This document shows, one piece after another, positions 23,339-48,193 of a stretch of 64,000 bases of DNA. Origin of the DNA: Candidatus Latescibacterota bacterium. Its GTDB lineage: Bacteria; JAAXHH01. The position numbers and the translations under genes are program-made. The stretch is taken from the NCBI GenBank assembly GCA_022821085.1, contig JAJEEG010000006.1, positions 1,073,330 through 1,137,329 on the forward strand. The letters are read 5' to 3'. The number at the start of each line of letters is the position of its first letter. The stretch's first letter is position 1. A model generated the notes under the pieces. The model made no database searches, was not told where the DNA came from, and saw nothing but the letters and a program-made list of their open reading frames with translations.

Positions 23339-24160
23339 CTATGGAAGCTCTTCCATCAGGTCCCGGATGAAGCGTAGGTCCGACCGGGCGAGATCGCAGA
23401 CCGTGTCCACGGGAACGCCCCCGTATTCGCTGTGCATGGTGACGGGCCCTTCGAACCCCTGGGCCTTCAGCGTGGACAGTGTCGTTTTCCAGTCTCCGAA
23501 GCCTGTGCCCAGCCGGACCACGTCGACTTCCCACCGCCTTTGGCCGTCCCGAACATGCAACACCCTGGTCAGGTCCTTGAACGACATGACGGACAGGTAC
23601 TCCCTGACGATGTCGAGGGCCATGTCGATCGGCTCTCCGCAGATGGACAGGTGCCCTACGTCCGCGAACACGCCGACGTGTTCGGGATCGAATCCCTGCA
23701 CGACGTGCATGACGGCGGATGAATTCAGGCCCATGGAGTGGCCCGAATGGTTGTGCACCACGGTTTTGACGCCGGTTTTCTCCGAAAGACGCTGGAATCC
23801 CTCCAGTTCCCTCCGCGCACGGTCCAGTTCCGCCCAGTAATCCGTTCCCGGCGACCAGTGCCAGTACCCCAGCTTGATGTGCTTTACCCCGTTCTCCCCG
23901 CAGGCCTGGTAGTATCTCTCCGCGTAATCCAGCGTGGCCGAAGTGAAATCCCCCGGTGCGGTAACGAGCGGGATAGTTAGTCCTTCGTCGGAAAGCACCC
24001 GCGCGGCTTCCGGCAGGGCGCGGTCGATGTTCCCAGGATTCACCGGATATCCGTCCCGCACGCACAGGTCGGCGCCGGAAACGCCTACGCTATTCAGTTT
24101 CTCCGCGATTTCCGCCAGCGTCAGACCCTCGAGGTGCTTGGTGAACATGATAAACTGCAT
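23339..24160 (-). CDS. Sugar phosphate isomerase/epimerase (xylose isomerase-like TIM barrel) family protein
   Basis: Family-typical layout with metal-binding His/Asp/Glu positions (..VVHNHSGHSMGL.., ..FADVGHLSICGE..). Confidence 0.8.
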   Translation of the reverse strand: MQFIMFTKHLEGLTLAEIAEKLNSVGVSGADLCVRDGYPVNPGNIDRALPEAARVLSDEGLTIPLVTAPGDFTSATLDYAERYYQACGENGVKHIKLGYWHWSPGTDYWAELDRARRELEGFQRLSEKTGVKTVVHNHSGHSMGLNSSAVMHVVQGFDPEHVGVFADVGHLSICGEPIDMALDIVREYLSVMSFKDLTRVLHVRDGQRRWEVDVVRLGTGFGDWKTTLSTLKAQGFEGPVTMHSEYGGVPVDTVCDLARSDLRFIRDLMEELP

Positions 24161-24177: not shown

Positions 24178-26238
24178 TCAGTAGGACTCCCAGCGATGAG
24201 GCCGGTCCGGGAACCAGGCCAGGTCAACTCCCATGCCGGCCAGCTGCCAGAAGAGATAGGCGAGCAATATACCAATAAACAACCTGCGGACCTTCTGGTA
24301 AAGCGTTGGGCCGCCGATGCGGAACACGATGGCCTGGACCAGCCAGGCCAGGAAGATCGTCAGGAACGCGTTCCGTACCGGGGCGGACATGACGACCACC
24401 ATGCCGATGGGATGGAGCGGCCACCACGGAAGGAGAAACCGCCCGGCCAGGAGCACGATCATCATCACGACCCCGCTCCCGAAGAACAGGACTTCGAGGT
24501 CGCTGATCTGCGTTGCGTTGTTGACCCAGGTCACGATCAGGTCGTAGAACCGGATGCCCCGGTCCGTGCCCAGGTCGGTCCGCAGGTTCTGGGCGCCGAA
24601 GGTGTTCCCGGCGTAGATTACGTAGCCGATGGAGGCTACGGCGCTCAGGCAGAACGCGACGGCCACGCCGGCGAAGAGGTACCTGGAAGAGATCCCGCTC
24701 CCGGAACTGCGCGCATCCCTAAGCGGATCGCGCCGGACTTGCCTGTGCTGGCGCCACCGGGACTTCAGCCAGGCCACGTGGGACGTGCCGATCATGGTGA
24801 AGGTGCGCCAGTTGCGCGCGAACCCGTTGGCCATGCCCAGGGCTGTGAGGTCGCCGCGGCCGATCTGTGCGGACCCCACGATGGCGATGGAGAACTGGTG
24901 GCTGTTGATGGGCAGGTCGAGCGTCACCACGCCCGTTTCCGCCACGACGCGGGCCAGGGCGATGTAGAAGATGAAGAGCAGGACAATGAACAGCGCCATG
25001 ATCGGAAGGGACATCCCGGCGGTGTACAGCCAGCAGATGATGAAGAGGAGGCCCAGCAGGAAGCCGAAGACGGCCGTGCGGTAGGAGAACAGTTCCTCCG
25101 TGTCGTCCAGCTCGCTCTTCCGGCCCAGGGCGTGGCGCCAGACGGACCCGAGGTGCCGGCGAGCCATCCAAAGGCCGAAGAGGACGAAGGTAACCAGGCC
25201 GGCAATGGACTGAATGCCGGCCAGGCCGCCATGGATGATGGTACCGGAGGTGGATCCGACACCGAGCATGTTGAGCGATCCCTCCTGCAGTACGTAGAAG
25301 ACGGGAAACAGCCACATGCTGAGGAGCACGTCCCGGTTGACGAAGATCAGCAGGCAGAATACGAACACGTTTAACCGGAAAATGAGCCCGGGAAAGGCGG
25401 GATCGAGGGAAAGTACCCGTGAGTGTTCGGCCATGATCGGGACAGCAGGCCATACGTCCCAGAAAGAAACGATGTTCCAGATCATGACCAGGGACATGGC
25501 CGCCGCGCCGGTCCGGATCCAGCGGTTGCCGCCTTTCCCATTTCCGCTTTTCCCATTGTCGCCACCCTCCCCAGCGCCGCCACCCTCTCCGGTGCCGCCT
25601 TCCCTACTGCCGCCGCCCAGCGAGATCAGGTGCAGGCCCACTTCGCCCAGCGGGAACTGGAGCCGTTCGTGTTCGACCCACTGCTTGCGAAGCATGACGA
25701 CGATGCACGCGCCGACGAAAAGCAGGATCAGGATGAAGGAACCCCACCAGAACAGGGGGGACAGCCATGCGCTCCAGGGAATCGACTGGCCGGACTGGAG
25801 TCCCTCGTAGAATACCCGCGCCGCCGCCCGGTCGCTGAGGACCAGCCATTCGGGCAGATAGGGAAAGAAGATGGTCTCCCAGCTGTTTTCCGGCGAGGCG
25901 AAGTAGAACGGCGCGGTGATCACGACGAGCAGGTATTTCGTCATGGCCTGGTCGGGCACCGTGGAGGCGATCCATCCCATGGCGAAAACCATGATCAGTT
26001 CGTAGAACGAGAGCGCCGATGCCGGACGGATCCGCGCCACCAGGGCATTGGGCAGCAGCACGCAGAAGAGGAAGGGAACGAGGAACACCGGGGGCAGGTG
26101 GGTCGCCGCCGGCTCGTAGCCGATCTGGTTGGCGGAGTATTCCCCCGCAAAGCCGATGAATATCGAAAGTGCGGCCCCGATGAGGATCGCCCTGAATGTT
26201 CGGATGCGCTGGAGGAAGGCCGATGCGATCGGTATCAT
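24178..26238 (-). CDS. Uncharacterised large polytopic membrane protein (paralog A of 52384-54366)
   Basis: 686 aa, >12 predicted TM helices; shares with paralog B the motifs PFY.A.PEN.W, VMLRKQWVEHERL.FPL, VLFGLWMARRH, E.FSYRTAV, ARVVAETG, WPLHP.G; Gly-rich insertion GGGSREGGTGEGGGAGEGGDNGKSGNGKGGN unique to this copy. Confidence 0.7.
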   Translation of the reverse strand: MIPIASAFLQRIRTFRAILIGAALSIFIGFAGEYSANQIGYEPAATHLPPVFLVPFLFCVLLPNALVARIRPASALSFYELIMVFAMGWIASTVPDQAMTKYLLVVITAPFYFASPENSWETIFFPYLPEWLVLSDRAAARVFYEGLQSGQSIPWSAWLSPLFWWGSFILILLFVGACIVVMLRKQWVEHERLQFPLGEVGLHLISLGGGSREGGTGEGGGAGEGGDNGKSGNGKGGNRWIRTGAAAMSLVMIWNIVSFWDVWPAVPIMAEHSRVLSLDPAFPGLIFRLNVFVFCLLIFVNRDVLLSMWLFPVFYVLQEGSLNMLGVGSTSGTIIHGGLAGIQSIAGLVTFVLFGLWMARRHLGSVWRHALGRKSELDDTEELFSYRTAVFGFLLGLLFIICWLYTAGMSLPIMALFIVLLFIFYIALARVVAETGVVTLDLPINSHQFSIAIVGSAQIGRGDLTALGMANGFARNWRTFTMIGTSHVAWLKSRWRQHRQVRRDPLRDARSSGSGISSRYLFAGVAVAFCLSAVASIGYVIYAGNTFGAQNLRTDLGTDRGIRFYDLIVTWVNNATQISDLEVLFFGSGVVMMIVLLAGRFLLPWWPLHPIGMVVVMSAPVRNAFLTIFLAWLVQAIVFRIGGPTLYQKVRRLFIGILLAYLFWQLAGMGVDLAWFPDRPHRWESY

Positions 26239-27807: not shown

Positions 27808-28653
27808 ATGAATCATCTCGGTTTCATGCTGATCGATCCGCCCTCCCGATGGGGCGGGAGTATTAACGACACCTTCCGTTTCATTCGATCCATCGGATAT
27901 GACGGCGTGGAATTGAATCTCACCTCCGAACTGGCGGGCCGTCTGGACCATGTGGAGGACGCCGTCCAGGCGCATGATCTGCCGGTCGTTTCGCTGCTCA
28001 CGGGTGCGGCGTACGAGGAGGGACTCTGTCTCAGCGCGCCGGATGCAACCATCCGCGATCGAACGGTCGAGCGCCTGGTGGAGAACATGGGGATCGCGAA
28101 TCGGTTCGGGGCCATCCTGGTGGTCGGCCTGTTGCAGGGCCTGCGCTCCGACGAACCGGACCCTGCGGCCGCCAATGCGCGGATCGTTTCCTGTCTGCAA
28201 CGGGTGGGACGGGAAGCCGAGGCCAGGGGGGTCGACATCGTGATCGAACCGGTAAACCACCTCCAGGTGGGATTCAACAACAGCGTCGGGGAAGTCCTGC
28301 GTCTGATCCGCGACACCGGATCCACTGCCTTCCATCCCATGGTCGACACCATCCACATGAATATCGAGGAGACCTCCCTCGTACAGCCCATCCACGACTG
28401 CGGCGCCCGTCTCAGGCACGTTCATCTCTGCGAAAGCCACGGGGGACTGCCGGGTACCGGCCGCATCGACTTCGCGGCCGTCCTCGATACCCTGGAAGAC
28501 GTGGACTATGCCCATTTCGCTTCGGTGAAGGTCTACAGGAAGGCCGGACTGCGCGAAGCGGCGGAACAGAGCATGGCCTTCTTCACGGAACTGGAATCGG
28601 GCCAGGCGCGCCGCGGCGGCCGGACAAGTGATTCAGGGGATCGGTACGCTTGA
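27808..28653 (+). CDS. Sugar phosphate isomerase/epimerase (xylose isomerase-like TIM barrel) family protein
   Basis: ..IGYDGVELNL.., ..VDIVIEPVNHLQ.., ..HVHLCESHGG.. conserved metal-site pattern. Confidence 0.8.
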   Translation: MNHLGFMLIDPPSRWGGSINDTFRFIRSIGYDGVELNLTSELAGRLDHVEDAVQAHDLPVVSLLTGAAYEEGLCLSAPDATIRDRTVERLVENMGIANRFGAILVVGLLQGLRSDEPDPAAANARIVSCLQRVGREAEARGVDIVIEPVNHLQVGFNNSVGEVLRLIRDTGSTAFHPMVDTIHMNIEETSLVQPIHDCGARLRHVHLCESHGGLPGTGRIDFAAVLDTLEDVDYAHFASVKVYRKAGLREAAEQSMAFFTELESGQARRGGRTSDSGDRYA

Positions 28654-34226: not shown

Positions 34227-34751
34227 CTACATCAATAGTTCAACGACTCTGTCCATGGCCTGTCCGATCCGATCGGCGAGTCTGCTGTCGTCAAGCCGGC
34301 CAATGGGATGATTGATTTCGACGATCGGATAGTCACCGCGGCCGAGCTGCTCCGCCATCACCTTCGCGGTGTGCGTGAAGTTGGTCGTACACAGCAGCAC
34401 GGACGGCAGTTCAAGGTGCTCCAGGATGAGGGCATCGTGCATGCTGCACGCGCTGCAGGAGCCTCAGTCGCCGACGCCAACGAGGGCGAAATGGCAGCGC
34501 CGCGCGATGAGACCCGTCATCTCGTCGGACAGCACGCGGCTGGCGCTTTCCTTGGTGAATGCGAGCGCTTCCACGGGATGGTCCAGGCGGTTGCTCAACT
34601 GCTCGAAGACACCGCGCAGGATGACATCGGAATTGGGCTTTCCGTTGCTCACCAGTGCGGCTACGGTGTGCCCGGGACCGAGCGGACGACGGGCCAGCCG
34701 CAGATCCGTGGCGCTGGCGGAGGCCGTAGGATCGACGAGGGTTATGGACAT
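34227..34751 (-). CDS. Candidate selenoprotein of the UGSC-motif family; in-frame TGA (34464-34466) read as Sec; 174 aa if read through
   Basis: ORFs 34464-34751 and 34227-34442 are in the same frame, separated by a single TGA; read-through gives ...RRCHFALVGVGD-U-GSCSACSMHDALILEHLELPSV... i.e. U-x-x-C-x-x-C redox motif; both halves protein-like; short palindromic hairpins (cgugcaGCAugcacg) start 2-14 nt after the UGA. Confidence 0.55.
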
Positions 34752-34809
34752 TGCCTATGCTCCAGGTGTGCGTGGTCTGCCGCCGGACCGGCGGCATGAA
34801 TTACGGTCG

Positions 34810-35817
34810 CTATGAATGGGAGACCGGGCGCGTCACCGGCCGGGATCCGACCCCCCTGCCCGATCCCAGCCAGGGCGGGATGATGGCGGAGTGTCCGCCC
34901 GCCGAACCTCCCGCGAAGACGATCCATATGCCTTCCGGGTCTGGCGTCAACGTGATGGCTTCATCGGGTTTCAGGTCGTCGTGACGGCCTGTTGCGTGGA
35001 TTTCGCGTCCTGTGGCTTCCGTACGTTCGAACAGCGCGCTTCTGATCGTTTCGCGTGTCCACCCGGCCCCGTTGAAGACCGACCGGTGTTCCGGGCAGAT
35101 GACGAAAACGATGGCGGCGCCGGCGTAGTTGGTCGTGCGGGAGACGCGCGCGAACGAGTCGATCAGGCCTCCTGGTTCGTCGTTCACGTGGTCGGCCACG
35201 GAATGGGGGGCCTCTGCGGCAAGTACCGTTACGGCGCTGCGGTCCGCGGGGACGCCTAGTTCGTCGCCCTGGGTCGGCCAGCCAGCGCAACGCGCTTCCG
35301 GCAGGCAGTACGCGATGCGTCCGGCGTGGGCTACCGTCGCCCGGTCCAGGTCCCCGGGCACGCTGCCGATACCGTTCCTGATCACCAGGTTCAGGGCCCT
35401 GCCCAGCGTCAGATTGGACCGGTTACCCGCGCCGAGCACCGCCGTTTCCGTATTGAAACCCATCTCGGCCACAACTGGACCGTGTACGATGACCAGCGGC
35501 GCGGCGCCCCCCGTGCTGGCCGAGGGGCCGACAATATTGAATGCCGGATCCAGGACAGCATCCACTGCGGCCAGGACTACAGGAAAAAGCGCGTCGGTGC
35601 AACCGGCCATCACCGCGTTGGCCGCGACCAGTTCCGCGGTGACGGTTCGCTTTCGTTCGGGCACCCGCCCGATTTCCCGGCCGGGCTCGAGTCCGTGCGC
35701 GGCCAGCATACGGTCGATGCGATCGCGGGTGGGCGGCACGACGGGCAGGCCGTCCGACCAGCCCCGGTCATAGGCGTACCCGATGGCATCGATTTCTGAT
35801 TCGACCTGGTGAGCCAT
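34810..35817 (-). CDS. Hypothetical cytoplasmic protein, co-transcribed between cytochrome c and selenoprotein candidate
   Basis: Start set at MAHQVESEIDAIGYAYDRGWSDGLPVVPPT (Met 35815-35817, 8 nt after cytochrome gene stop); ORF-track start 35991 would overlap cytochrome gene by 166 nt; no domain recognised. Confidence 0.5.
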   Translation of the reverse strand: MAHQVESEIDAIGYAYDRGWSDGLPVVPPTRDRIDRMLAAHGLEPGREIGRVPERKRTVTAELVAANAVMAGCTDALFPVVLAAVDAVLDPAFNIVGPSASTGGAAPLVIVHGPVVAEMGFNTETAVLGAGNRSNLTLGRALNLVIRNGIGSVPGDLDRATVAHAGRIAYCLPEARCAGWPTQGDELGVPADRSAVTVLAAEAPHSVADHVNDEPGGLIDSFARVSRTTNYAGAAIVFVICPEHRSVFNGAGWTRETIRSALFERTEATGREIHATGRHDDLKPDEAITLTPDPEGIWIVFAGGSAGGHSAIIPPWLGSGRGVGSRPVTRPVSHS

Positions 35818-35825
35818 CGGAACCG

Positions 35826-36218
35826 CTATCTGCCGTAGTAGTTTTCGAGATAGGTCAGTATGGTATCTTCGGTCTTGGAGTCGAAGGTCTTCAGGCCCTT
35901 CTCCGCCTGCATCCACCGGATGGCGTCCAGCCACTCCTCGCGGTTCGCCCGGTACGAGCGGATGATCTGGGTCGGATGGCACTGCGCGCATTCCCTTTCC
36001 ACGACGGGGTAGCCGTCGCCCATGATCAGCCTGGTCCGGTGATGCAGCTCCAATCCGGTTCGGGGATCGAACATCGCCACGGGCTTTGCCGCCTCGGCGC
36101 GGGCATTGGCCAGCGCGACTTTCGATCGCTCCGCTTCATAGTAGATCACGCCGATCACGATGGCGTCGAGGACGATCACGAAGGCGATCTGGCCAAGTAC
36201 GCGCATAAACCTATTCAT
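35826..36218 (-). CDS. Membrane-anchored monoheme c-type cytochrome
   Basis: N-terminal TM helix (VLGQIAFVIVLDAIVIGVIYY) followed by single heme-binding motif ECAQCH. Confidence 0.55.
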   Translation of the reverse strand: MNRFMRVLGQIAFVIVLDAIVIGVIYYEAERSKVALANARAEAAKPVAMFDPRTGLELHHRTRLIMGDGYPVVERECAQCHPTQIIRSYRANREEWLDAIRWMQAEKGLKTFDSKTEDTILTYLENYYGR

Positions 36219-36282: not shown

Positions 36283-38490
36283 TCATCTCGAACCCGCACC
36301 AATGGGAAGGCCGAACCCCACGTACCACGTCCGGCCCGCAGCCGGCTCGAAGAAACGATCCCCGAAGGCGTTGGGGACGATGGAACCATTGTAACGCGTA
36401 TCAAACAGGTTGTTGACGCCAGCGAACAGGACGCCGCCGACCGTCGCGCCTTGGTAGGTGATGCCAGCGCGCAAATCAACGAGGCCGTAGCCGTCGTTGA
36501 CGAAGTCGGATACCGGCTTTCCGCTCCCGGGAGCGGGCCCGTTGAAGTCGTTGGCGAAGTACTCCGCCGTCCATTGCGCGTTTAACTCCACGAACGCGCC
36601 ATTGTCCGGATGGGTGTAGGTGAATCCGGCGAACAGGTGGTGGGGCGGCACGCCGGGCACTTCGTTGTCCGACAGCTGGACGAGCCTGGTGGTTCCATCG
36701 ACCTCCCGCTCGACTTCGAAGTCGTCGAATTTGAATTGCATGCCGGTGTAGGCCATCGCCAGGTTGACCGGGGGCAGAGGAGACCAGGTCAGCTTCAGTT
36801 CGATGCCCCGGTTCCGCGTTTTGCCCGCATTGCGGAAAAAGACCTCGTCCGTCTCCGGATTGTCGATCTGGAAGGGCAGGAGCATATTGCGTATCCCGAA
36901 GGTGAAGAGGGCGGCGTCATAGGCTAATCCGGCATCGGGCAGGAATCCCTTTACGCCTGCCTCGAAGCCCCGAATTCGTTCGGGCTCGAGATCCGGATTG
37001 AAACCTCCGGCCTGCGTGGGCTGGTTGCTCAGTTCCGTAGTGGTCGGCGTCTGGAAGGCGGTGGAGAAATTGCCGTACACCGCCGTGAGCGGGGCAGGCC
37101 GGAAAGCCACGCCCAGGTGGGGGCTGAACTGCGCCATGTTCCGCGTTCCAGAATCGTCGGTCTGGTCACTCAGGAAACGGTCCGTCGCCTCGTATCGGAA
37201 CCGGTCGTACCGTCCGCCGGCGGTGATTGATACCTCCGGTCCGGGTGACCATTCCAGCTCCACGAAGGGGCCGAAGCCGTCGACGCCTTCCTCCTGGTCC
37301 AGCAGTTTGTCGCCGCGCGAAATTTCGTCGAAGACGCGTGCGTCGTCCAGCGTGCCCACGAGATCTCCCGGAATGCCGGCGTTGCCGTATTCGCGCCGTT
37401 CGTCGCGCTGTATCTCCAAATCCAATCCGGCCGTCATCCGGTATCCGCCGTTTCCGATCCCACCCTCGCGGCTATACACCCCCCGAATTCCCCCGGCCAT
37501 GCGGTCCAGGTCGATGATCCGGCCCGGAATGGGGTTGAACAGCGTGCGTCCCATGCCGAAGACCGTGATTTCTCCTTCGGCCCCGGGCGCTTCGTAACGC
37601 AGGGACAGGCCGCCCTGGAACTGTCTGATCTCCTTGGACGCGCCCTGTCGCTGGACGAAAGTTCTAGCGCTGGCGGGGTCCGACTCGGCCGTGGCCTTGT
37701 CGAGTGAGCTCGGGTTGTACTGGTACGGTGCGTTGTAGTAATTGGCCACGGCCGTCATGGTCCAGGTATCGTCGATCCTTCGTTTCCCGACCGAGTTGAT
37801 ACCGGTCGAACGTGCAAAGGCATGGTCGCGGAACCCGTCGAACCAGAGCGTATTGAAATTGACGAGAAACCGGTTGCCGCCCGCGGTGCCGGCCGCCTTG
37901 CCCTGCAGTCGCCGCAGGCCATGCGAACCGGTGATGAAACGGGGCGTGACTTCGATCGGCCGGTCCGGGGCATCTTCGGTGCGAATCTGGATGACACCGC
38001 CCGCCGCGTTGCCGTAAAGCGACGAACTGGGACCGCGCAATACTTCGATCTGCCCCGCCGAGGTGAGATCGAGGTTGTTGAGCTGGGACTGGCCGTCGGC
38101 CATGGTCAGCGGAATGCCGTCCAGCACCAGCTTCACCCCGCGCACGCCGAAGGACGCCCGGCTGCCCAGGCCGCGGATGCTGATCCGGTCGCCCTGGGAC
38201 ACGTTGTTCCGGTTGTTTACGATGATGCCCGGCAGTCCACGGACACTCTCTTCCAGGGACAGCCCGGGTTCGGCGCGCTGGATCTCGTCCCGGTCCACCC
38301 GGTCCACGGCATAGGGTATGTCGAGGATCTCCCGGATGTAGCGGGTAGCGGTGACTTCAATGGGTTGAAGGACGTGATCTACGTCAACATCGGTGGTGTC
38401 CGGAGTCGACTGCGGCCAGGCGTGGGCGGGTAGCGGATGCAGAAACAGATGCAGGAAAAGGAAACCGCAGGCTGGAAGAATCGTTTTCAT
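36283..38490 (-). CDS. TonB-dependent outer-membrane receptor
   Basis: Signal peptide, plug domain (..LSLEESVRGLPGIIVNNRNNVSQGDRISIRGLG..IEVLRGPSSSLYGNAAGGVIQIRTE..), long beta-barrel. Confidence 0.85.
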   Translation of the reverse strand: MKTILPACGFLFLHLFLHPLPAHAWPQSTPDTTDVDVDHVLQPIEVTATRYIREILDIPYAVDRVDRDEIQRAEPGLSLEESVRGLPGIIVNNRNNVSQGDRISIRGLGSRASFGVRGVKLVLDGIPLTMADGQSQLNNLDLTSAGQIEVLRGPSSSLYGNAAGGVIQIRTEDAPDRPIEVTPRFITGSHGLRRLQGKAAGTAGGNRFLVNFNTLWFDGFRDHAFARSTGINSVGKRRIDDTWTMTAVANYYNAPYQYNPSSLDKATAESDPASARTFVQRQGASKEIRQFQGGLSLRYEAPGAEGEITVFGMGRTLFNPIPGRIIDLDRMAGGIRGVYSREGGIGNGGYRMTAGLDLEIQRDERREYGNAGIPGDLVGTLDDARVFDEISRGDKLLDQEEGVDGFGPFVELEWSPGPEVSITAGGRYDRFRYEATDRFLSDQTDDSGTRNMAQFSPHLGVAFRPAPLTAVYGNFSTAFQTPTTTELSNQPTQAGGFNPDLEPERIRGFEAGVKGFLPDAGLAYDAALFTFGIRNMLLPFQIDNPETDEVFFRNAGKTRNRGIELKLTWSPLPPVNLAMAYTGMQFKFDDFEVEREVDGTTRLVQLSDNEVPGVPPHHLFAGFTYTHPDNGAFVELNAQWTAEYFANDFNGPAPGSGKPVSDFVNDGYGLVDLRAGITYQGATVGGVLFAGVNNLFDTRYNGSIVPNAFGDRFFEPAAGRTWYVGFGLPIGAGSR

Positions 38491-38544: not shown

Positions 38545-39171
38545 CTAATCCAATGAACGGATCTTGACGTTCTTGAACCGGATTTTGCCCTGGCCGAAGG
38601 CCTGCAGCACGACGACGCCGCTGTAATGGGAGGAATCCTGGATCTTGACGGCTTCTTCCCCGTTCAGCGTAACCGTAATGTCACGTCCGTCGGCGGTGAT
38701 GACCATGGTGTTCCACTGGCCTTCGGTCTTAGGCGGCGGTTCGTACTTGGCCAGCGCCACGATGCTGCCGGTGGTGTAGCCCGAGCCGTGGGTATCCGCG
38801 ATATTGATCTCGTAGAAGGAATACTGGTTCACCCTCGCCCCGGTATCACGCGGCCCGCGTACGAAGACACCGCTGTTGTGGCCGGCGTCCTGGTTGAACT
38901 GCACGCTCAACTCAAAGTTCGTGAACTCGGCGTAGGACCCGATGTATCCGGGGCCACCCGTCGCTTCCCCGGTGAGCATGCCGTCTTCCACCGCCCAGAT
39001 GGCGGTACCGCCGCGGTGGGTCCAGCCCAGGAGGGTCTGGCCGTCGAACAGCAGTTTCCAGCCCGCCTCCTGCTCCGCTTCGGTCAGCATATTGTCCTGA
39101 GCGGCAGCCGTGCCCTGCATACAGGCCGCGAAAAGGGCGGCGGCCGCAAGGCTCCAGATGTAGCGTTTCAT
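38545..39171 (-). CDS. DUF1080 (3-keto-disaccharide hydrolase-like jellyroll) domain protein, secreted
   Basis: Signal peptide; EQEAGWKLLFDGQTLLGWTH...IWAVEDGMLTG...YAEFTNFELSVQF...NSGVFVR pattern typical of PF06439. Confidence 0.75.
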   Translation of the reverse strand: MKRYIWSLAAAALFAACMQGTAAAQDNMLTEAEQEAGWKLLFDGQTLLGWTHRGGTAIWAVEDGMLTGEATGGPGYIGSYAEFTNFELSVQFNQDAGHNSGVFVRGPRDTGARVNQYSFYEINIADTHGSGYTTGSIVALAKYEPPPKTEGQWNTMVITADGRDITVTLNGEEAVKIQDSSHYSGVVVLQAFGQGKIRFKNVKIRSLD

Positions 39172-39197
39172 TACGAATCTCCTGTGTTAGTCGCCAA

Positions 39198-41204
39198 CTA
39201 TTCGCCTTCTTCGGCTTCGGGTTCCGGACCCAGCTTCAATGCTATCAACTCGGCAGGATGACCACCGGCGCCAACCGTCATGATGAGGTACTGCACGTCA
39301 TTGTGCATGTAGGTCATGGGCATGCCGCTTTGGGCCGCCGGCAGTTCGATCGACGCGACGACTTCGCCCGTCGCCTTGTCGTAGGCGTGGAGATAAGGAT
39401 CTCCTCCGAAGCCCTCGCCTGCGAAGAGCAGCGTGCTCGTCACCAGGGAACCGATACGGGTGGCCTTGCCGGTCCGGGGCAGATCGACGCCCGCAAGCTG
39501 CGGCAGGTCCTTGATGGCCTGCGGCGTATCGCCGTTAGGCGCCATCCACACGTGATCGCCCGTGTTCATATCGACCGCGGTGATCCGTCCCCAGGGCGGC
39601 CTGACCAGCGGGATCTCGCCGAAGACCCTCGGCGCCCTCAGCCCGGCCGAGAAGTAGTCCATGTCCGATTCTTCGGGATCCGGCGCCCGGAGCGCCAGCT
39701 TCGAAATGCTGGTATTGGAAGGAATGAAATTCACGCCGGTGACCGGGTCCAGGCAGGTCATGTTCCAGTTGACCCCGCCGTTCGCGCCGGGAATCTGTAT
39801 CGTGCCGATGGTACCGTCCGGCGCTTCCGCGAGCGAAGGCGGCTGGAAAAGCGGCCCGTACCGGTGGTTGGCCATCAGGTTGATCGCCTCCTGGCGCACC
39901 TCCGGGGTGAAGTCCACCAGGTCGTCCTGACTGATGCCCTGGTGTTCCCAGGGAGCGGGCTTCACGGGAATCGGTTGCGTGGGCGAAGCCCGGTCGCCAG
40001 GCACGTCCGAGGCAGGCACGTCCGTTTCCGGCATATCCCAGATGGGTTCGCCAGTCACCCGGTCGAACACGTAGGAATACCCCTGTTTGGTGTTCTGGAT
40101 CACGATCTTGCGATCTTCGCCGTCGATCGTCACGTCGGCCAGGATCGGCGCGGCGGGATTGTCATAGTCCCAGATATCGTGATGGACGATCTGGAAGTGC
40201 CAGATCTTTTCACCCGTCGTGTAATCGACGGCCACCAGGCTGTTCGCGTACAGGTTGTCGCCCAGGCGATGCCCGCCGTAGTAATCGTTCGTCGGCGCTT
40301 CGACAGGCAGATAGGCATAGCCCAGTTCGGTATCGGCGGAGATGGAGGTCCATACGCCGGCGTTCCCGGTATAGGATCTCGAATTCTGCTCCCAGGTCTC
40401 CGCGCCTTCTTCGCCTTCGTCCGGTATAACCTTGAACTTCCACAGGATTGCGCCGGATCGTGCGTCGTAGGCTACGACGTCTCCCGGCGAGTTGGTCATC
40501 GACCGGGGCCGGAATCCCGCGGCGAGGGCCGGCGGAACGAGAATGATGTCCTCCACGACCGTCGCGGGAGACGTGTTGGCGAGGTTGCCGACGGGCGTGA
40601 CGTTCTCCGCGTTGCGCCAGCCTTCCATCATGTCGACCACGCCGTTATTGCCGAATTCGGCCACCGGGATGCCCGTTTGGGCGTCGAGGGCCACCAGGTA
40701 AAACCCCCGGGTGATCAGAATGACCCGGTTGTCGCCCTGACCGTCGGTCCAGAACGAGACGCCGCGCCCGGAATTTCGCCGCGGAGCCGTTGCCCAGCGT
40801 TCTTCGTCCTCCACCGGGCGGTAGGTCCACATTGTCTCGCCCGTTTCCGGCTCGATGGCCATGGCGCTGCGCCGCGTACCCGCCGTGGAATAAAGCATGC
40901 CGCCGACGTAGATGGGCACCGGCTGGGCGTAGTACTCGGGACGGGGGCCGTAGTTGTCCTGCTTCCATCGCCAGGCGACCTCGAGGCGGCCCACGTTATC
41001 CGCATTGATCTGATCCAGCGGGGAATAGCGCGTGTAGGCCAGGTCGCGGCCCAACATGCGCCATTCGGAATCGGGCTGTTCCACCGGTATGATCTTACCC
41101 GGCGCCCTTTGTGCCGCGGGTTCGCAGGATGCTAATATCGTGATCGCCATGGCCAGCGCGATCAACGGCGGCGTCCATCGAAACAAGGGGGAAAATCTAC
41201 TCAT
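39198..41204 (-). CDS. PQQ-dependent dehydrogenase (quinoprotein beta-propeller), lipoprotein
   Basis: Lipobox LASC; repeated W-containing propeller motifs (..VAWRWKQD.., ..GETMWTYRP.., ..GAILWKFKV.., ..GEKIWHFQIVHHDIWDYD.., ..GEPIWDMPE..); GGGAGG SD before Met 41204. Confidence 0.8.
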   Translation of the reverse strand: MSRFSPLFRWTPPLIALAMAITILASCEPAAQRAPGKIIPVEQPDSEWRMLGRDLAYTRYSPLDQINADNVGRLEVAWRWKQDNYGPRPEYYAQPVPIYVGGMLYSTAGTRRSAMAIEPETGETMWTYRPVEDEERWATAPRRNSGRGVSFWTDGQGDNRVILITRGFYLVALDAQTGIPVAEFGNNGVVDMMEGWRNAENVTPVGNLANTSPATVVEDIILVPPALAAGFRPRSMTNSPGDVVAYDARSGAILWKFKVIPDEGEEGAETWEQNSRSYTGNAGVWTSISADTELGYAYLPVEAPTNDYYGGHRLGDNLYANSLVAVDYTTGEKIWHFQIVHHDIWDYDNPAAPILADVTIDGEDRKIVIQNTKQGYSYVFDRVTGEPIWDMPETDVPASDVPGDRASPTQPIPVKPAPWEHQGISQDDLVDFTPEVRQEAINLMANHRYGPLFQPPSLAEAPDGTIGTIQIPGANGGVNWNMTCLDPVTGVNFIPSNTSISKLALRAPDPEESDMDYFSAGLRAPRVFGEIPLVRPPWGRITAVDMNTGDHVWMAPNGDTPQAIKDLPQLAGVDLPRTGKATRIGSLVTSTLLFAGEGFGGDPYLHAYDKATGEVVASIELPAAQSGMPMTYMHNDVQYLIMTVGAGGHPAELIALKLGPEPEAEEGE

Positions 41205-41252
41205 CACACGCTGCCTCCCATGATGCGGGTTGATTGGTGCTGCAAATCGCAT

Positions 41253-41422
41253 GTTCGAAATCGTTATGATACGGAGATGTCACGGACCGGGATAAGCGTT
41301 CAAGCCCGTATTCCCTGTATACAAAACAGGCGATCTGGTATTGAATAGTTTTGTAAATATCAGACCAATGTAGCGTCACGCATTTTCGATGTAAAGCCCT
41401 TTATGGAGAACCTGACCATGGC
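41253..41422. promoter_or_regulatory. AT-rich intergenic region upstream of PQQ dehydrogenase operon (probable promoter/regulatory region)
   Basis: 170 bp with markedly lower GC than surroundings (..aaatcgcatgttcgaaatcgttatgatacgg..ttgaatagttttgtaaatatcagaccaatg..) in a 65% GC genome. Confidence 0.3.
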
Positions 41423-43159
41423 CTAGTCCCTGCGTGGCCAGGGCGTCTCGGGCGGACCGAAACGAGGTTCTCCCAGCACGGGGGTCGACAGGCAGTAGAA
41501 ACCGTGATTGGCAAACAGCCAGACCAGGTTGCGGTCGTATTCGACGTAAATGCCATGGGTCAGATTGCCCAGGGCGTACTCCGGGGTGCGGGAAGGATCG
41601 AATTTCGGTACGAAGTAGGCGGTAATCTCCGGATTGGAGAGGTCGGAGACATCGAATACCTGTACGCCGGCGTTGTAGAAGGCATAGAGGAGGATGTCCT
41701 CCTTCGGCGTACCGGGCTGGGTATAGTAGCCGCTTCGTTTCGGCCCGAAACTACCGCGCCGCTGCACGAAATCCGTGAACGGCGCATCCGCGGGCGGCAC
41801 CGGCCGGGGCAGCGTGCCGAGCAGTTCGGGATTGACCGGATCGTTCACGTCGATCATGAAGATGTCCTTGTACGGCTCCCAGCCGTCTTCGTTCAGCGGA
41901 TAACCGGAGAAGTAGACCACGCCGGTCTTTTCCACCTGCGTCACGTTGATGTAGTCGCCTTCCGTGCCCGCGACGCTGGGCGGGAAGTTGAGGTGTCCCA
42001 GCGCCTTGATCGCGGCCGGGTCCGAGATGTCCAGCACGTAGAACCCCAGTCCTCCCATGGCGGCATAACCGTACCTGCCGCCTTCCTCCACGGGCCGGGC
42101 CATGAAGATCGACATGCGCGCGCCGAACCAGGAGGTCCGGTTTCCAGCACGGGGATTGGCCCGGTATGCGGCCTCGTCGTCCGGATCACCCAGTTTCTGG
42201 CCCGGCACGTTGAACTGGCTGACGAACATCGGATTGGACGGGTCGGACAGGTCCCATGCCTGGTAGCCGGCCGAGTACAGGTCGCTCGGGTATTCGGTCA
42301 GGGCGTATTCCGCGCTGGGCGCCGCGGCGACGAACATGTATCGGCCGCCGTGCCAGGCCGGGATGTCCCGGACGCCGGAGCCCTGTTGCTCGCCGACAGG
42401 CGCGTCGGGATGCTCGTAGTCTGTGGTTCGCTCGGCGAGCAAGGTCCAGTCTTCCGGCAGGGGCCCGTTCATCTCGTATACCTTGAATCCTTTGAGATGA
42501 TTGGCATGGCGAATCGCCTCAACCCGGTCCGGTTCCGCGCGCTTGTCGCTCAGCACGCCGAAGCGCCGGATCTCGAAGGCCTGCACCATGATATGCTTGC
42601 CCAGATCCTCGTTCCACTGGATGGACGCGGCGCCGAACATGTCGTCTTCGGCATAGGGATTGACTTCTTCGCCGGGCCCGTCTCCGGTCCACGTACTGCC
42701 CTTCTCATGGACGACTTTCAAGTCCTTCGGATCGGTGATATCATAGATTTTGAGGGCACGGCGCACGTACTGGTACATGTACCGCCGACCGTCGAAGTCC
42801 ACGATGTTCTGCCAGGTATGAAAGGGTTCGACGGTGATCGGGTAGTAGGCCTCGACGGTCATGTCCTTCGCGTACTCGTTCGTATCCCAGTAATCCAACT
42901 GGCCTTCGAAGGGTTTGGACTCATGCTGATGAGGTGTGGCCGCGGGGTAGATGAACCGGCCGGTCTCCGGGTCCATCCCGTAGCTCGCGGGATCGGGTTC
43001 GGGGGGCGTACGATCCTCCGCCAGCGCGTCGGCGTGGAGGACGAATTCGTCCACTATGTTGGACTGGGACGGGGATTCGCGCTCCGTTGAAGATCCGCAG
43101 CCGGCGGCGATCGTTCCACATAGCAGCGCGGCAACAAGGGGCGTCATGCGTGTCTTCAT
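41423..43159 (-). CDS. LVIVD-repeat beta-propeller lipoprotein
   Basis: Lipobox AAGC; repeated L.V.D.SDP..P units (IYDITDPKDL, WDLSDPSNP, YVLDISDPAAI, VQVFDVSDLSNPE). Confidence 0.5.
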   Translation of the reverse strand: MKTRMTPLVAALLCGTIAAGCGSSTERESPSQSNIVDEFVLHADALAEDRTPPEPDPASYGMDPETGRFIYPAATPHQHESKPFEGQLDYWDTNEYAKDMTVEAYYPITVEPFHTWQNIVDFDGRRYMYQYVRRALKIYDITDPKDLKVVHEKGSTWTGDGPGEEVNPYAEDDMFGAASIQWNEDLGKHIMVQAFEIRRFGVLSDKRAEPDRVEAIRHANHLKGFKVYEMNGPLPEDWTLLAERTTDYEHPDAPVGEQQGSGVRDIPAWHGGRYMFVAAAPSAEYALTEYPSDLYSAGYQAWDLSDPSNPMFVSQFNVPGQKLGDPDDEAAYRANPRAGNRTSWFGARMSIFMARPVEEGGRYGYAAMGGLGFYVLDISDPAAIKALGHLNFPPSVAGTEGDYINVTQVEKTGVVYFSGYPLNEDGWEPYKDIFMIDVNDPVNPELLGTLPRPVPPADAPFTDFVQRRGSFGPKRSGYYTQPGTPKEDILLYAFYNAGVQVFDVSDLSNPEITAYFVPKFDPSRTPEYALGNLTHGIYVEYDRNLVWLFANHGFYCLSTPVLGEPRFGPPETPWPRRD

Positions 43160-44292
43160 GGCTTGGCTTCCATGGGCGTGACGAGCCGGCCGATGCCCTC
43201 GATCTCCATTTCCACCACGTCGCCCGGCATGAGATATTCGGGCGGATTCCGGGCGCGGCCCACGCCGTCCGGCGTGCCCGTGGCGATCACGTCGCCCGGA
43301 TAGAGGGTCTGGACGGAGGTCAGATACCGAATCATGTGCGCTTCATCGTAGATCATGTAGCTGGTGTTGCTGTCCTGCTTGATCACGCCGTTGACCCAGG
43401 TCCTGATGTCGAGGTCGTCATGCTGGATGAACTCCTTGGGTACGATGTAGGGCCCGAAGGGGGCGGCGCGGTCGCTGCTTTTGCCGTTGAACCAGTTCGG
43501 ACCGGGGAACATGCGGTTGATCGGCTTCAGTCCGGAGCCGCCCCTGCGGCTGACGTCGAACAAGATGCTGTAGCCGAAGACATAGTCGTGGGCGTTTTCG
43601 AGGGTCAGGTCCAGGGCCGGCCTGCCGATGATGATGGCGAGTTCGACCTCCCAGTCGATGTTCACGTCCTTCGGCACGTAATAGGGTTCTCCCGGATCGA
43701 TAATGGTGGATCTTGGCGACTTGGCGAAGAAATAGGGTTCTTCGGCGTCCACGTCCACTTCAACGGCAGTGAAACCCGCGCCCCCGATGGCCGATTCTTC
43801 CATCTCGTCCGCGTGGGCCCGGTAGTTCGCCGCGGCCGCCAGCAGGTTGTAGGGATACTTGATCGGCGCCTTGAAGGAGACGTTCTCCGGATCGAATACG
43901 AAGGGCAGGTCCGGGTTCGACAGGCGGTTTTCCGCGCCCATGTAGTTCGCGATCGTGTACATGCGGTTGGATACGGCGTCGTATTGCTCGATCAGCGCCC
44001 GCATTTCCTTCGGAATGGATGCCACGGGCAATCCAAGCTGACGGGTGACGTAGGCGTTCGCCTCGTGCAGGTCCATCAGCCTTTCCTGGTTCGCCTGGCC
44101 CGGCTGGCCCGCCTGGCCCGTCTGGACCGACATGCCGATGCGGATCGTTCCCGTGGCCTCGAAGGTGGCGAGCTTGAAGGGCGTATCCGGCTGGTCGGAT
44201 ACCTGGGACCGGGCCGAGCCTGGTGCAGTCAGCCATAGCGCGGCGCCAATCAACAGTACAGCGACCGGCAGAAATCGTATCCGGTGCGGCAT
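43156..44292 (-). CDS. Fumarylacetoacetate hydrolase (FAH) family protein with signal peptide and ~120 aa N-terminal extension
   Basis: ..DWEVELAIIIGRPALDLTLENAHDYVFGYSILFDVSRR.. FAH-fold signature; N-terminus MPHRIRFLPVAVLLIGAALWLTAPGSARS; stop overlaps start of downstream LVIVD gene. Confidence 0.75.
   Translation of the reverse strand: MPHRIRFLPVAVLLIGAALWLTAPGSARSQVSDQPDTPFKLATFEATGTIRIGMSVQTGQAGQPGQANQERLMDLHEANAYVTRQLGLPVASIPKEMRALIEQYDAVSNRMYTIANYMGAENRLSNPDLPFVFDPENVSFKAPIKYPYNLLAAAANYRAHADEMEESAIGGAGFTAVEVDVDAEEPYFFAKSPRSTIIDPGEPYYVPKDVNIDWEVELAIIIGRPALDLTLENAHDYVFGYSILFDVSRRGGSGLKPINRMFPGPNWFNGKSSDRAAPFGPYIVPKEFIQHDDLDIRTWVNGVIKQDSNTSYMIYDEAHMIRYLTSVQTLYPGDVIATGTPDGVGRARNPPEYLMPGDVVEMEIEGIGRLVTPMEAKP
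44093..44128. repeat. In-frame 9-bp tandem repeat x4 (gcctggccc-like) inside FAH-family gene
   Basis: gcctggccc ggctggccc gcctggccc gtctggacc; encodes QTG-QAG-QPG-QAN on minus strand. Confidence 0.75.
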
Positions 44293-44480
44293 AGCAGCAA
44301 CCTCCTTGATGACCGGTCGATCCGGGCGTTATCGTATCTCCAGGAAGAGACAGCGCACCAGATCGCGGGATTACAGATCAGGCGACCTGCCGGAGCATCC
44401 GGCCAGATAGTCGCGGGATAACGGGGTGCGGAAGCGTACAGGTGGGATGGATATGTCGAATTGTTGTTTGAGAAATCGGA

Positions 44481-44555
44481 TCGGGGCGGGGAGATTTGAA
44501 CTCCCGACCTCCTGCTCCCGAAGCAGGCGCGCTGACCGGGCTGCGCTACGCCCCG
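44481..44555 (-). tRNA. tRNA-Pro (anticodon CGG)
   Basis: Cloverleaf: acceptor CGGGGCG/CGCCCCG, D-stem GCGC, anticodon stem CCTGC/GCAGG with loop TTCGGGA, T-loop TTCAAAT; no encoded CCA. Confidence 0.85.
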
Positions 44556-44604
44556 ATGTGTGACCGATCATGGGACAAGGGCCCGGTGGGCCGCCTTGCC
44601 GGAA

Positions 44605-44678
44605 TCGGGGCGACTGGATTTGAACCAGCGACCACCAGCCCCCCATGCTGGTGCGCTACCTGACTGCGCTACGCCCCG
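44605..44678 (-). tRNA. tRNA-Pro (anticodon GGG)
   Basis: Acceptor CGGGGCG/CGCCCCG, anticodon stem CCAGC/GCTGG loop ATGGGGG, T-loop TTCAAAT. Confidence 0.8.
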
Positions 44679-44725
44679 AAAACTTCGGCGTATAATGTAT
44701 GCCGATGAGGGGCTTCGGGCAAGGG

Positions 44726-45700
44726 TTATTTTGGCGGCTTTAGCGTGCCCCCGCACGATCCCATACGGCTGCGGGCCTGTTCGACGAACCAGCGATGATC
44801 GGCGCGAATCAGGGATTCGTCCCGTGTTTCAGTTGCGAGGAAGTCGAGTTTATTCACTACGCGAAACGCCGTGTAAACGTCCCACCAGGGCAGGCATCCG
44901 GAGTCCACGGGATTCAGGGATTCGTAGTGACGGGTGAACAGGTCCATGATTTCGGCACCGAAGAGCATCAGGATCTCGAACCGGGCGTTCGACACGTCGA
45001 AGAGCGGGTCTCCCCGCCGGGTGTCCTCCCAGTCGATGATTGCCGTGAGGCGTCCATCCTGCCAGAGGGTGTTCCCCGGCCAGTAGTCGCCGTGCAGGAC
45101 GACCGGCGTATTGTTGCGGGGGAGCGGCCAGCACGGCGCGAGCATTTCGATCAGTTCGCGTTCGCCCGCAGTAACGCCGGGCGTTTCCGGCGGCTTTCCG
45201 ATTGCTGAAGCGCAGTCATCCTCCACCCGCAGCAGAAAGGAAAGATCCCGGCCGGCCGTATCCATCCGGTGTATCCTGGCCAGTTCACGGGCCATCTGCA
45301 TCACGTACTCCGCCGAATCTCCGGGCTTCAGATCGGTCTTACCTTCCGCATATTCCAGCACCAGGGAGGGTGAGGGGAAAAGGGGATCCGTCGCGTCCAG
45401 GTAGACCGGGGCGGGCGTGGCCAGCCCCGCGGCGTGGGTCAGCTGCAGCACGCGGAACTCATCCGCGGCCACGTTCGGGTTCTGCTGGAGGTCCACCGCG
45501 CCGTGCAGCCGGTGAATGAGCTTTCTCAACGTACCGTCCCCGGCTTCCACTTCCAGGACGGTCACATCGGCCGAGTAGCCTCCGGGCAGGCCGCGATGGC
45601 TTTTCAACCTGGCGCGCGGATCGAATCTGTGGACGAGCTTTTCGAACCGGTGGTAATCGTCGACGGGTTCCATGGGAGGCCTATTCCCCGGGGTAGTCAA
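44726..45700 (-). CDS. Aminoglycoside-phosphotransferase-fold (APH/choline-kinase superfamily) small-molecule kinase
   Basis: Catalytic loop VLHGDYWPGNTLW and IDWEDTRRGDPLFDV. Confidence 0.75.
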   Translation of the reverse strand: MTTPGNRPPMEPVDDYHRFEKLVHRFDPRARLKSHRGLPGGYSADVTVLEVEAGDGTLRKLIHRLHGAVDLQQNPNVAADEFRVLQLTHAAGLATPAPVYLDATDPLFPSPSLVLEYAEGKTDLKPGDSAEYVMQMARELARIHRMDTAGRDLSFLLRVEDDCASAIGKPPETPGVTAGERELIEMLAPCWPLPRNNTPVVLHGDYWPGNTLWQDGRLTAIIDWEDTRRGDPLFDVSNARFEILMLFGAEIMDLFTRHYESLNPVDSGCLPWWDVYTAFRVVNKLDFLATETRDESLIRADHRWFVEQARSRMGSCGGTLKPPK

Positions 45701-47129: not shown

Positions 47130-47239
47130 GATCCTTTCATGAATGGGATGGCGATTCCCTTGCGTCTTGCTCAGGGTACATACCAGGCCATCTGATATGC
47201 CGGCCGGCAGTCTACGCGTTCAGCCGGCAAGCACCTCGT

Positions 47240-48193
47240 TCAGCCGTCGATCTCGCAGTCTTCCAGGTAACGGTCCACCGACGCCTTCAGCGATATCTCT
47301 CCGCCCATCACTCGGTCTTCGTAGGCGCGGTACCAACCAGGTATCAGGGACCGTGTCTCCCGGAACTCGGCGAGGATGAGCCTTGCGAAATCTCCGCTGT
47401 CCTCCAGGTAGCCGGTTTCGTGAAAGCGCGCGATCGCCCGTTCGCGGTCGTAGTCGAGGCGGATGATTTCCGCCTTCCACGCACCGGCCTCGAACGTCAT
47501 CTGGGCGTAGGCCGCGCGGGGGTCCCGGTCGAAGGGCGCGCCTACCGCGCCCACGTTGACGACCAGGGCATCGTCCACGGTCCGGATAAGGGGCCGGTGC
47601 GTGTGTCCCACCACAAGCACCTTCGGCGCCGGAGCGATCTTCTCGCGCAGCGATGCTTCCGTATCGTCGGGGAAGATCCCCTTGCGGTCGCCCAGCATGG
47701 ATGCGTGCACCATGCGGAATTCGTTCCCCGACTCATCGGTCATGGACCACTGAAAGGATAGCGCTTCGAGGTGTTCGACCAGGCGATTCGGGCTATCGGG
47801 GCGGTCCGGGTCGGCCTGAATGGCCTGGTCGGCCTGACTGGCCTGGCCGGCCTGACTGGCCTGGCCGGCCTGATCGGCCTGCCCAGCCTGGCCGACCAGT
47901 TGGTCGTAGGTCCACTTCGCATGCCGGATGATCTCGAATTCGGGACCGCGGTCGGGCAGGTTTCCCCTTCCGTACTTCAGCACGTACCGCTCGTGGTTCC
48001 CATAGATCATGCCCCAGTCTTCCGCCAGGGCGCGAGTCACGACGCGTTGGGTGCACGCACGGGGATTCGGTCCCCGGTTGATGATGTCGCCCGCGCACAG
48101 GACCCGGTCGGGCTGCCAGCGGTCGATGTGTTCCAGGACGGTTTCCAGCGCATCCAGGTTGCTGTGCACGTCGGCGAAAACAGCGATCTTCAT
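47240..48193 (-). CDS. Metallophosphoesterase (calcineurin-like) with Q-A-x repeat insertion
   Basis: MKIAVFADVHSN, GDIINRGP, GNHE, VVGHTH motifs; insertion GQAGQADQAGQASQAGQASQADQAIQAD. Confidence 0.8.
   Translation of the reverse strand: MKIAVFADVHSNLDALETVLEHIDRWQPDRVLCAGDIINRGPNPRACTQRVVTRALAEDWGMIYGNHERYVLKYGRGNLPDRGPEFEIIRHAKWTYDQLVGQAGQADQAGQASQAGQASQADQAIQADPDRPDSPNRLVEHLEALSFQWSMTDESGNEFRMVHASMLGDRKGIFPDDTEASLREKIAPAPKVLVVGHTHRPLIRTVDDALVVNVGAVGAPFDRDPRAAYAQMTFEAGAWKAEIIRLDYDRERAIARFHETGYLEDSGDFARLILAEFRETRSLIPGWYRAYEDRVMGGEISLKASVDRYLEDCEIDG
47813..47893. repeat. In-frame 9-bp tandem repeat x9 (ggcctgNNN) inside metallophosphoesterase gene
   Basis: ggcctgaat ggcctggtc ggcctgact ggcctggcc ggcctgact ggcctggcc ggcctgatc ggcctgccc agcctggcc; encodes (x-Q-A)9 on minus strand. 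Confidence 0.85.

Follow-up and report, generated by a model that had tools for sequence, protein, structure and literature searches.

A probable UGSC-family selenoprotein and its conserved, sometimes fused partner protein in an uncultured bacterial lineage

The subject of this study is a 174-aa protein encoded on the minus strand of a 64-kb stretch of DNA from a Candidatus Latescibacterota bacterium (contig JAJEEG010000006.1 of assembly GCA_022821085.1, positions 1,073,330 to 1,137,329; the whole stretch is hereafter called the window). Its gene contains one in-frame UGA, at positions 34464-34466 of the window, which, judged by comparison with homologous genes, encodes selenocysteine (Sec) in a protein of the UGSC family with a probability that we put at about 0.88. 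The gene is a typical, mis-annotated member of an already catalogued family, and the selenoprotein itself is not new. Added here are a conserved partner protein together with natural fusions of the two, a predicted fold other than that of thioredoxin (Trx), a defined candidate for the selenocysteine insertion sequence (SECIS), and the apparent entanglement of this RNA element with the peptide that it encodes.

UGSC-containing proteins have long been known, from the Sargasso Sea and Global Ocean Sampling (GOS) surveys, as a predicted family of selenoproteins (PMC2398784); the initial annotation of the window had correctly pointed to a 'UGSC-containing' family from marine metagenomes. The GOS data hold 255 Sec and 21 cysteine (Cys) forms of the protein, with UxxC as the motif (PMC2398784). 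The family ranks among the most abundant selenoprotein families of the GOS, chiefly in non-marine aquatic samples, and has no known function (PMC2398784, PMC13188914, PMC9312934, PMC5029168); for a protein so abundant in aquatic metagenomes, no function has been assigned since 2005. In every public contig looked at, the gene is mis-called as two hypothetical open reading frames (ORFs) of 95 aa and 71 aa. Read through, it gives an uncultured lineage, labelled Gemmatimonadota or Latescibacterota, a further selenoprotein and implies the Sec trait there; a literature search for Sec machinery in Gemmatimonadota found nothing.

The UGSC gene and its in-frame UGA

The features of the gene, in window coordinates, are as follows.
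34227..34751, minus strand: UGSC-family selenoprotein gene with a 174-aa product; start codon ATG 34749-34751, internal Sec codon, true stop TAG 34227-34229
34464..34466, minus strand: in-frame UGA, read as selenocysteine at residue 96 in the motif VGVGD-U-GSC, from homolog alignment and codon conservation
34760..34763, minus strand: GGAG, which may be a Shine-Dalgarno sequence, 8 nt ahead of the UGSC ATG, from sequence inspection

The two minus-strand ORFs, 34464-34751 (95 aa) and 34227-34442 (71 aa), share a common frame with the TGA at 34464-34466 as their sole divider, and the 174-aa read-through product contains ...ALVGVGD-U-GSCSACSMHDALILEHLELPSV.... The initial annotation had described exactly this same-frame pair and its read-through length, and both are borne out by the sequence and its translation. 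The product matches the Pfam profile PF24696, "UGSC family", with 140.2 bits (cutoff 25), its residues 5-173 aligning with profile positions 2-170 of 172 and thus spanning the TGA; U was replaced by C in the product for this match and for the NCBIfam match given below. In syntenic contigs, gene callers give separate 95-aa and 71-aa products, both of which match PF24696. The UGSC product is without a hydrophobic N-terminus and was called cytoplasmic.

A six-frame scan of the 64 kb for TGA-split ORF pairs with a coding-like ratio of GC content at third and second codon positions (GC3/GC2) on both sides returned three sites, among which the UGSC site is the only non-antisense one. The other two frames were ruled out as selenoprotein candidates, being antisense to well-supported genes.

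Comparative evidence for selenocysteine at the UGA

One genome per GTDB species was scanned for UGSC, as a result of which 431 relatives were found; the locus counts given here and below rest on 89 loci fetched in all. Public protein databases contain about 45 homolog clusters (45-99% identity) that all end at exactly 95 aa, along with a few full-length homologs of 179-184 aa. The initial annotation had proposed an alignment of the U with Cys-containing homologs, and this alignment places it on a Cys that is invariant in ten full-length homologs (VGVGD-C-GSCSAS). The motif VGVGD-[U/C]-GSC is invariant in the 11 aligned sequences and was found in all 89 loci, with TGA as the codon at the U column in 83 and TGC in six. 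The six TGC loci are all actinobacterial and comprise three distinct sequences. Those with TGA belong to records with the labels Gemmatimonadetes, Latescibacterota, Acidobacteriota, Dehalococcoidia/Chloroflexota and Actinophytocola, and the conservation of TGA spans at least five phyla; records from Rokubacteria and Methylomirabilia also hold split UGSC genes. In its full-length match to a hidden Markov model, in the position of U-G-S-C at the same column and in the dominance of Sec forms (83 versus 6 loci here), the window gene agrees with the catalogued UGSC family (PF24696/NF041046), from which it differs in nothing essential, apart from a predicted fold that conflicts with the published Trx-like guess.

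Codons U+1 and U+2 always specify Gly and Ser in 82 of 82 distinct Sec-type genes, with every GGN and every TCN codon in use, and this variation, which is synonymous only, shows that the sequence after the TGA is translated. An open frame of 78-94 codons follows the TGA in 83 of 83 TGA loci. Moreover, TGA is the commonest ordinary stop among the window genes (23/43), so that the genome is not recoded and the event is local.

The alternative that has to be weighed here is a real stop, with the locus a split gene or pseudogene that gives a 95-aa fragment, with or without a 71-aa fragment initiated separately at an ATG/GTG seven codons later. Such a reading would agree with the split annotation in all public contigs looked at, with the ATG or GTG that stands seven codons past the TGA in all sequences, and with TGA being the usual stop in this genome. 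However, that reading leaves the seven codons before the ATG/GTG without translation, although Gly and Ser are fixed there and their third positions use all four bases, a signature of selection at the protein level. In addition, the G-S-C behind the TGA matches, in the alignment, the GSC that is invariant in Cys homologs without an interruption, and an identical split with a preserved frame recurs in 83 loci across phyla, unlike what is seen in pseudogenes. On these comparisons, a split gene seems a very unlikely account of the locus. That the TGA is a TGC/TGT misread in sequencing or assembly, or that UGA is an ordinary sense codon here (Trp or Gly), can practically be dismissed: a single-base change would restore Cys, and Cys forms exist, but TGA is present in 83 independently assembled loci that include complete long-read chromosomes, the 23 of 43 window genes that end in TGA are well supported and no other gene has an internal TGA, and the aligned residue of the homologs is Cys, not Trp or Gly. 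Taken in combination, the comparative evidence excludes sequencing error, pseudogene and alternative genetic code. A selenoprotein with U in a U-x-x-C motif, as put forward in the initial annotation, is thus supported by the family match across the TGA, the alignment with an invariant Cys, the 83 TGA loci, the synonymous-only codon variation and the compensated hairpin described next.

A conserved hairpin 3' of the UGA

34432..34453, minus strand: SECIS-like hairpin GCGCGUGCA-GCA-UGCACG-A-UGC, with 9 pairs in the window, 8 of them conserved family-wide

The hairpin has a bulged A at 34435 and an apical GCA triloop at 34442-34444, and its conserved 8-bp stem begins 11 nt past the UGA. RNAalifold, applied to 60 distinct sequences, finds the 8-bp hairpin unaided (alignment columns 15-22/26-34), and all eight pairs are standard in 60 of 60 aligned sequences and in 83 of 83 TGA genes. 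The triloop follows the pattern GYR, with an invariant G as the first loop base. The three distinct TGC sequences keep 5, 5 and 7 of the 8 pairs. In L035, a TGA locus from Actinophytocola, CGGCCA-GUU-UGGCCG replaces CGUGCA-GYR-UGCACG by way of two compensatory pairs (U-A to G-C and G-C to C-G); the peptide of this locus differs (UGSCSAASLAD), yet the helix stays intact. Synonymous sites are frozen over the hairpin codons (Ala GCG 82/82, Cys TGC 81/81, Val GTG 59/59, His CAC 81/81, both Ser AGY), where the mean codon entropy is 0.34 bits, compared with 1.46-1.49 bits in the flanks of the gene. The hairpin sequence occurs once in the window. We read the hairpin as a putative SECIS that is under selection only in TGA genes.

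Two palindromes within an outer helix had been proposed as the RNA element by the initial annotation, a proposal that stands in part. CGUGCA-GCA-UGCACG (34436-34450) is the conserved and covarying hairpin. The CUGCA...UGCAG palindrome was rejected as a rival helix, since it overlaps the conserved stem, lacks covariation and is disrupted in L035, and the 5-bp outer helix around the palindromes is found in the close clade only.

The 11-nt spacing and the loop G fit the rules for the minimal SECIS of E. coli fdhF and the models of bacterial SECIS elements (bSECIS). Like a SECIS of the fdhF type, the UGSC hairpin lies inside the coding sequence directly 3' of the UGA, with an 11-nt spacer, a G as the first loop base and a bulged base in the stem; unlike it, the UGSC hairpin has an apical loop of only three bases (GYR), bulges an A on its 3' side and is near-invariant in sequence across phyla. 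By the established route of bacterial Sec insertion, SelB carrying Sec-tRNA(Sec) would bind the hairpin and insert Sec at residue 96, the UGA at 34464-34466 being decoded during translation as selenocysteine and not as a stop.

Several results have to be set against Sec at this position and against the hairpin as its signal. Within the 64-kb window (about 45 genes annotated, tRNA scan, Rfam), selA, selB, selD and tRNA-Sec were not found. Rfam gave no match to a SECIS model at either gathering or permissive (E <= 10) thresholds. The single-sequence folding energy of the 3' flank is not better than that of shuffles (z = 0.1 to 0.4), and the support for the RNA element is thus comparative, not thermodynamic. 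The covariation of the hairpin comes from one lineage (L035), the stem being invariant elsewhere. Lastly, the match of the product to the NCBIfam model NF041046, 'UGSC family (seleno)protein', which leaves the first 31 residues unaligned, has a score of 119.9 bits and falls 5 bits short of the equivalog cutoff of 125.

Overlap of the hairpin with the extended UxxCxxC motif

The window protein reads U-GS-C-SA-C, and the initial annotation had accordingly extended the redox motif to UxxCxxC. As a feature of the family, this extension is not supported. Sec forms read U-GSC-SAC-S[MV]HD and Cys forms read C-GSC-SAS-AxAD, so that the third Cys is Ser in the Cys forms, and it is Ala in the Sec form of L035. 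The codons for A-C-S-[VM]-H (GCG UGC AGY RUG CAC) coincide with the putative SECIS stem-loop. In L035, the third Cys and the His are both Ala and the stem is still paired, and the loss of these residues with pairing retained shows that the third Cys and the following His are dispensable for the UGSC family. The core motif of the family is, by this comparison, U/C-x-x-C, and the third Cys and the His may be dictated at least partly by RNA pairing. The case advises caution, in that RNA structure, not catalysis, can shape 'extended' redox motifs beside Sec codons.

The gene in L035 (L035:5274-5321, from an Actinophytocola sp. metagenome-assembled genome) is the only Sec-type gene seen with UGSCSAASLAD in place of UGSCSACS[VM]HD. 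Its partner gene is placed downstream, an arrangement shared with the actinobacterial loci of the Cys type.

Pairing and fusion with a partner gene

34810..35817, minus strand: partner gene; its product is a cytoplasmic protein of 335 aa from an uncharacterised family in which Cys73 (motif NAVMAGC) is invariant; likely start codon ATG 35815-35817

A longer, 393-aa form of the partner ORF (from 35991) overlaps the cytochrome gene described below, and the gene callers of related contigs choose the shorter form. The partner is without a hydrophobic N-terminus and has no Pfam or NCBIfam match. Its invariant residues include the Cys (C73) as well as His, Asp, Glu and Arg. The protein whose gene directly follows the Cys-type UGSC genes on actinobacterial contigs shares 35-39% identity with it (E 1e-50 to 1e-57). 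By tblastn, 68 of the 89 loci have the partner next to UGSC and in the same orientation, upstream of it for most lineages, downstream for actinobacteria. A reciprocal sample gave the same picture: four distant partner genes (from Rokubacteria, Methylomirabilia and two metagenome contigs), picked blind to the presence of UGSC, are each followed by a split Sec-type UGSC gene (4/4). At E <= 1e-3 the partner family comprises 7,649 clusters, a number that falls to 2,196 at E <= 1e-30, the clusters being defined at 50% identity in a library of 1.84 billion representatives.

Fusions of partner and UGSC also occur naturally (P0178, P0185, P0241 and P0246), and in these the called product stops at ...[AG][IV]GD, exactly at the Sec codon. 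For P0178, a same-frame UGSC ORF of 78 aa lies 21 nt further on. The DNA of the P0185 fusion, confirmed in L094, reads GAT TGA GGG GGC TGC TCC TCG TGC AGT GTG CAC GAC and carries the same hairpin. Other members of the partner family have an N-terminal Trx-like CxxC domain or a C-terminal ACxxC domain. The GOS survey, too, names a 'UGSC/Unknown_1' fusion, whose second domain may be this partner. Adjacent or fused across phyla, UGSC and the upstream 335-aa protein form, by these comparisons, the conserved unit, and it is probable that the two work together.

The architectures observed in the partner family are the partner alone, the partner with Trx-like CxxC at the N-terminus, with UGSC at the C-terminus or with ACxxC at the C-terminus, and tandem duplicates of about 710-740 aa. 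A 421-aa 'UGSC' product of L091 was ruled out as a further fusion, being a partner paralog without the Cys; the portion of its sequence that was covered does not account for its precomputed Pfam label 'UGSC'.

Predicted fold of the UGSC protein

The fold was modelled for P0042, a natural Cys homolog with 36% identity to the window protein, from an alignment of 22 rows that included both halves of the window protein. The model has a predicted local distance difference test score (pLDDT) of 84 and a predicted template modelling score (pTM) of 0.81. It shows the topology b1-a1-b2-a2-b3-[CGSC]-a3-b4-a4-b5-a5 with five parallel strands, and places D96-C97-G98-S99-C100 between the strand 89-95 and the helix 98-113; a Trx fold was not found in it. 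The UGSC fold is therefore predicted to be flavodoxin/Rossmann-like, not Trx-like. The invariant residues of the family follow the strands, with N-x-K-x-N after b1, K after b2, D-U-G-S-C after b3, F after b4 and H-P after b5, and in the model they would share the C-terminal edge of the sheet, where folds of this kind usually have their active site. Sequence and profile searches of the PDB with the UGSC protein and with the partner returned no meaningful relative.

Selenoproteins of the Trx fold with UxxC or CxxU motifs (Trx-, peroxiredoxin-, SelW- and DsbA-like) resemble UGSC in the U-x-x-C dyad at a strand-to-helix junction and in a selenenylsulfide cycle, which would be the probable chemistry of UGSC as well. 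They differ from it in fold, UGSC being predicted as flavodoxin/Rossmann-like with five parallel strands.

A proposed two-protein system and the alternatives to it

We tentatively propose, at slightly under even odds, that UGSC is the selenium-bearing subunit of a widespread two-component, sometimes single-chain, enzyme and not a free redoxin, the other subunit being supplied by the partner family of about 340 aa. The Sec would sit at the end of strand 3, with the resolving Cys three residues on, at the start of helix 3 (U-G-S-C). Motif, fold and fusions are consistent with U96 and C99 cycling between selenol/thiol and selenenylsulfide at the b3-a3 junction. UGSC and the 335-aa protein would then make up a two-component system in which UGSC is the dedicated redox module and probably exchanges with Cys73 of its partner; that the chemistry is indeed selenol/thiol exchange with this Cys is a possibility to which we give a little less than half the weight. 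A corollary of the two-component enzyme would be that in the Sec forms it is the palindromic SECIS stem, and not catalysis, that dictates the C-x-x-H behind UGSC. If true, the proposal would describe a new Sec-dependent enzyme system.

Some findings do not sit easily with a joint function of UGSC and partner, or with a relay through Cys73. No partner was detectable within 5 kb in 21 Dehalococcoidia/Chloroflexota UGSC loci (L034, L037, L044, L047, L052-L054, L059, L061-L063, L065, L071, L073-L075, L081, L082, L085, L086 and L089), among which L086 has almost no upstream sequence, making the absence there uninformative. The Trx-fused partner still has a UGSC gene, which indicates that the redox modules are not simple substitutes for one another. 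In L091 (L091:1-984), a second partner paralog a few kb from the partner/UGSC pair reads NAVMAGA, with Cys changed to Ala. The fold prediction, for its part, comes from a Cys homolog of 36% identity and a shallow alignment of 22 rows.

As an alternative, UGSC could be a free-standing Trx-like redoxin, as suggested in the literature, with its adjacency to the 335-aa gene incidental. The 21 UGSC loci that have no partner within 5 kb would fit such a protein. The adjacency across phyla, the reversed order in actinobacteria, the 4/4 result of the reciprocal sample and the natural fusions speak against it, as do the many invariant polar residues beyond U-x-x-C on the same sheet edge, and we regard it as unlikely.

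Less likely again is that the protein is a selenoprotein B of the GrdB/PrdB type, that is, the substrate-binding subunit of a glycine/proline-type reductase. A likeness in motif had been pointed out in the initial annotation, and GrdB does carry UxxCxxC (PMC13188914) and PrdB carries UxxC (PMC2398784, PMC13188914), to which the U-GS-C-SA-C of the window protein, with Sec in first place, can be compared. The UGSC gene also has a larger, Cys-containing partner alongside, as is the case for GrdB/GrdE and PrdB/PrdA. Kinship, however, finds no support. There is no detectable sequence homology, PF07355 (GRDB) giving no match to the window protein at E <= 10. Within the UGSC family the third Cys varies, being Ser in the Cys forms and Ala in L035, and its codon lies in the SECIS stem and may be driven by the RNA. 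None of grdA/C/D/E and prdA/C is present among the approximately 45 annotated genes of the window or among the recurrent neighbours in the 89 loci, and the host neighbourhoods show no common theme of amino-acid fermentation.

To return to the proposed two-component enzyme, the pairing and fusion with the partner, the predicted non-thioredoxin fold and the invariant residues around the Sec give a concrete two-protein system for expression and assay.

Genomic context of the UGSC locus

The genes next to the UGSC/partner pair in the window are as follows.
35826..36218, minus strand: 130-aa mono-haem c-type cytochrome (CAQCH) with an N-terminal hydrophobic anchor, ending 8 nt before the partner start codon
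29727..34154, minus strand: two amidohydrolase genes (996 aa and 467 aa; Pfam Amidohydro_1/3) with hydrophobic N-termini, directly downstream of UGSC
36283-38490: TonB-dependent receptor, which accompanies the pair only in the window's clade

In the initial annotation, the UGSC gene was the last of a three-gene unit that also held the cytochrome and the 335-aa protein. The same-strand run in fact continues past the UGSC gene with the two amidohydrolases and an oxidoreductase, and no terminator-like site was found on the minus strand from 38490 to 31164. Outside the clade, the 335-aa protein is the one neighbour that is conserved. The cytochrome shows weak similarity only, to SorB-like proteins (E 0.005) and to a quinohaemoprotein haem domain (E 0.08); it stands beside the pair only in the window's clade and in L021, and was ruled out as a general companion for that reason. 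The amidohydrolases are syntenic in close relatives only. A direct link from the cytochrome to UGSC seems disfavoured, since the cytochrome and the amidohydrolases have hydrophobic N-termini and UGSC and its partner do not.

Across the 89 loci, no other neighbour family was present in more than 20, and the recurrent neighbours (NHL repeat, glucose-methanol-choline (GMC) oxidoreductase, aldo/keto reductase, pyridoxal-phosphate (PLP) enzyme, short-chain dehydrogenase/reductase (SDR) and gamma-glutamyltransferase (GGT)) share no metabolic theme. Many of the 21 loci without a detectable partner have a gene for a PLP-dependent enzyme upstream, on the opposite strand.

Elsewhere in the window, a long same-strand run of catabolic appearance extends over 38545-52365 on the minus strand. 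It includes a 3-keto-disaccharide hydrolase, a pyrroloquinoline quinone (PQQ) dehydrogenase, an LVIVD-repeat protein, a fumarylacetoacetate (FAA) hydrolase, two tRNA-Pro genes (44478-44679), a kinase of the aminoglycoside phosphotransferase (APH) family, a sulfatase, a metallophosphoesterase, an N,N-dimethylformamidase-beta-like protein, a PhyH dioxygenase and a luciferase-like monooxygenase. Two large paralogous proteins, each combining a DUF6785 with a DUF6784 domain, are encoded at 24178-26238 and 52384-54366, both on the minus strand, and lie near genes for xylose-isomerase-like TIM-barrel (AP_endonuc_2) proteins at 23339-24160, 27808-28653 and 54470-55417, which suggests that the DUF6785/DUF6784 and AP_endonuc_2 genes form a repeated cassette. 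Between ABC-transporter permease genes, no gene was called at 7370-9141 and 10130-11784, where long plus-strand ORFs run from 7625 to 9085 and from 9491 to 11752. Finally, the called start of a 466-aa Amidohydro_2 ORF (62064-63464, plus strand) overlaps tRNA-Arg(CCT) (62014-62086) by 23 nt, and the true start of this ORF is probably further downstream.

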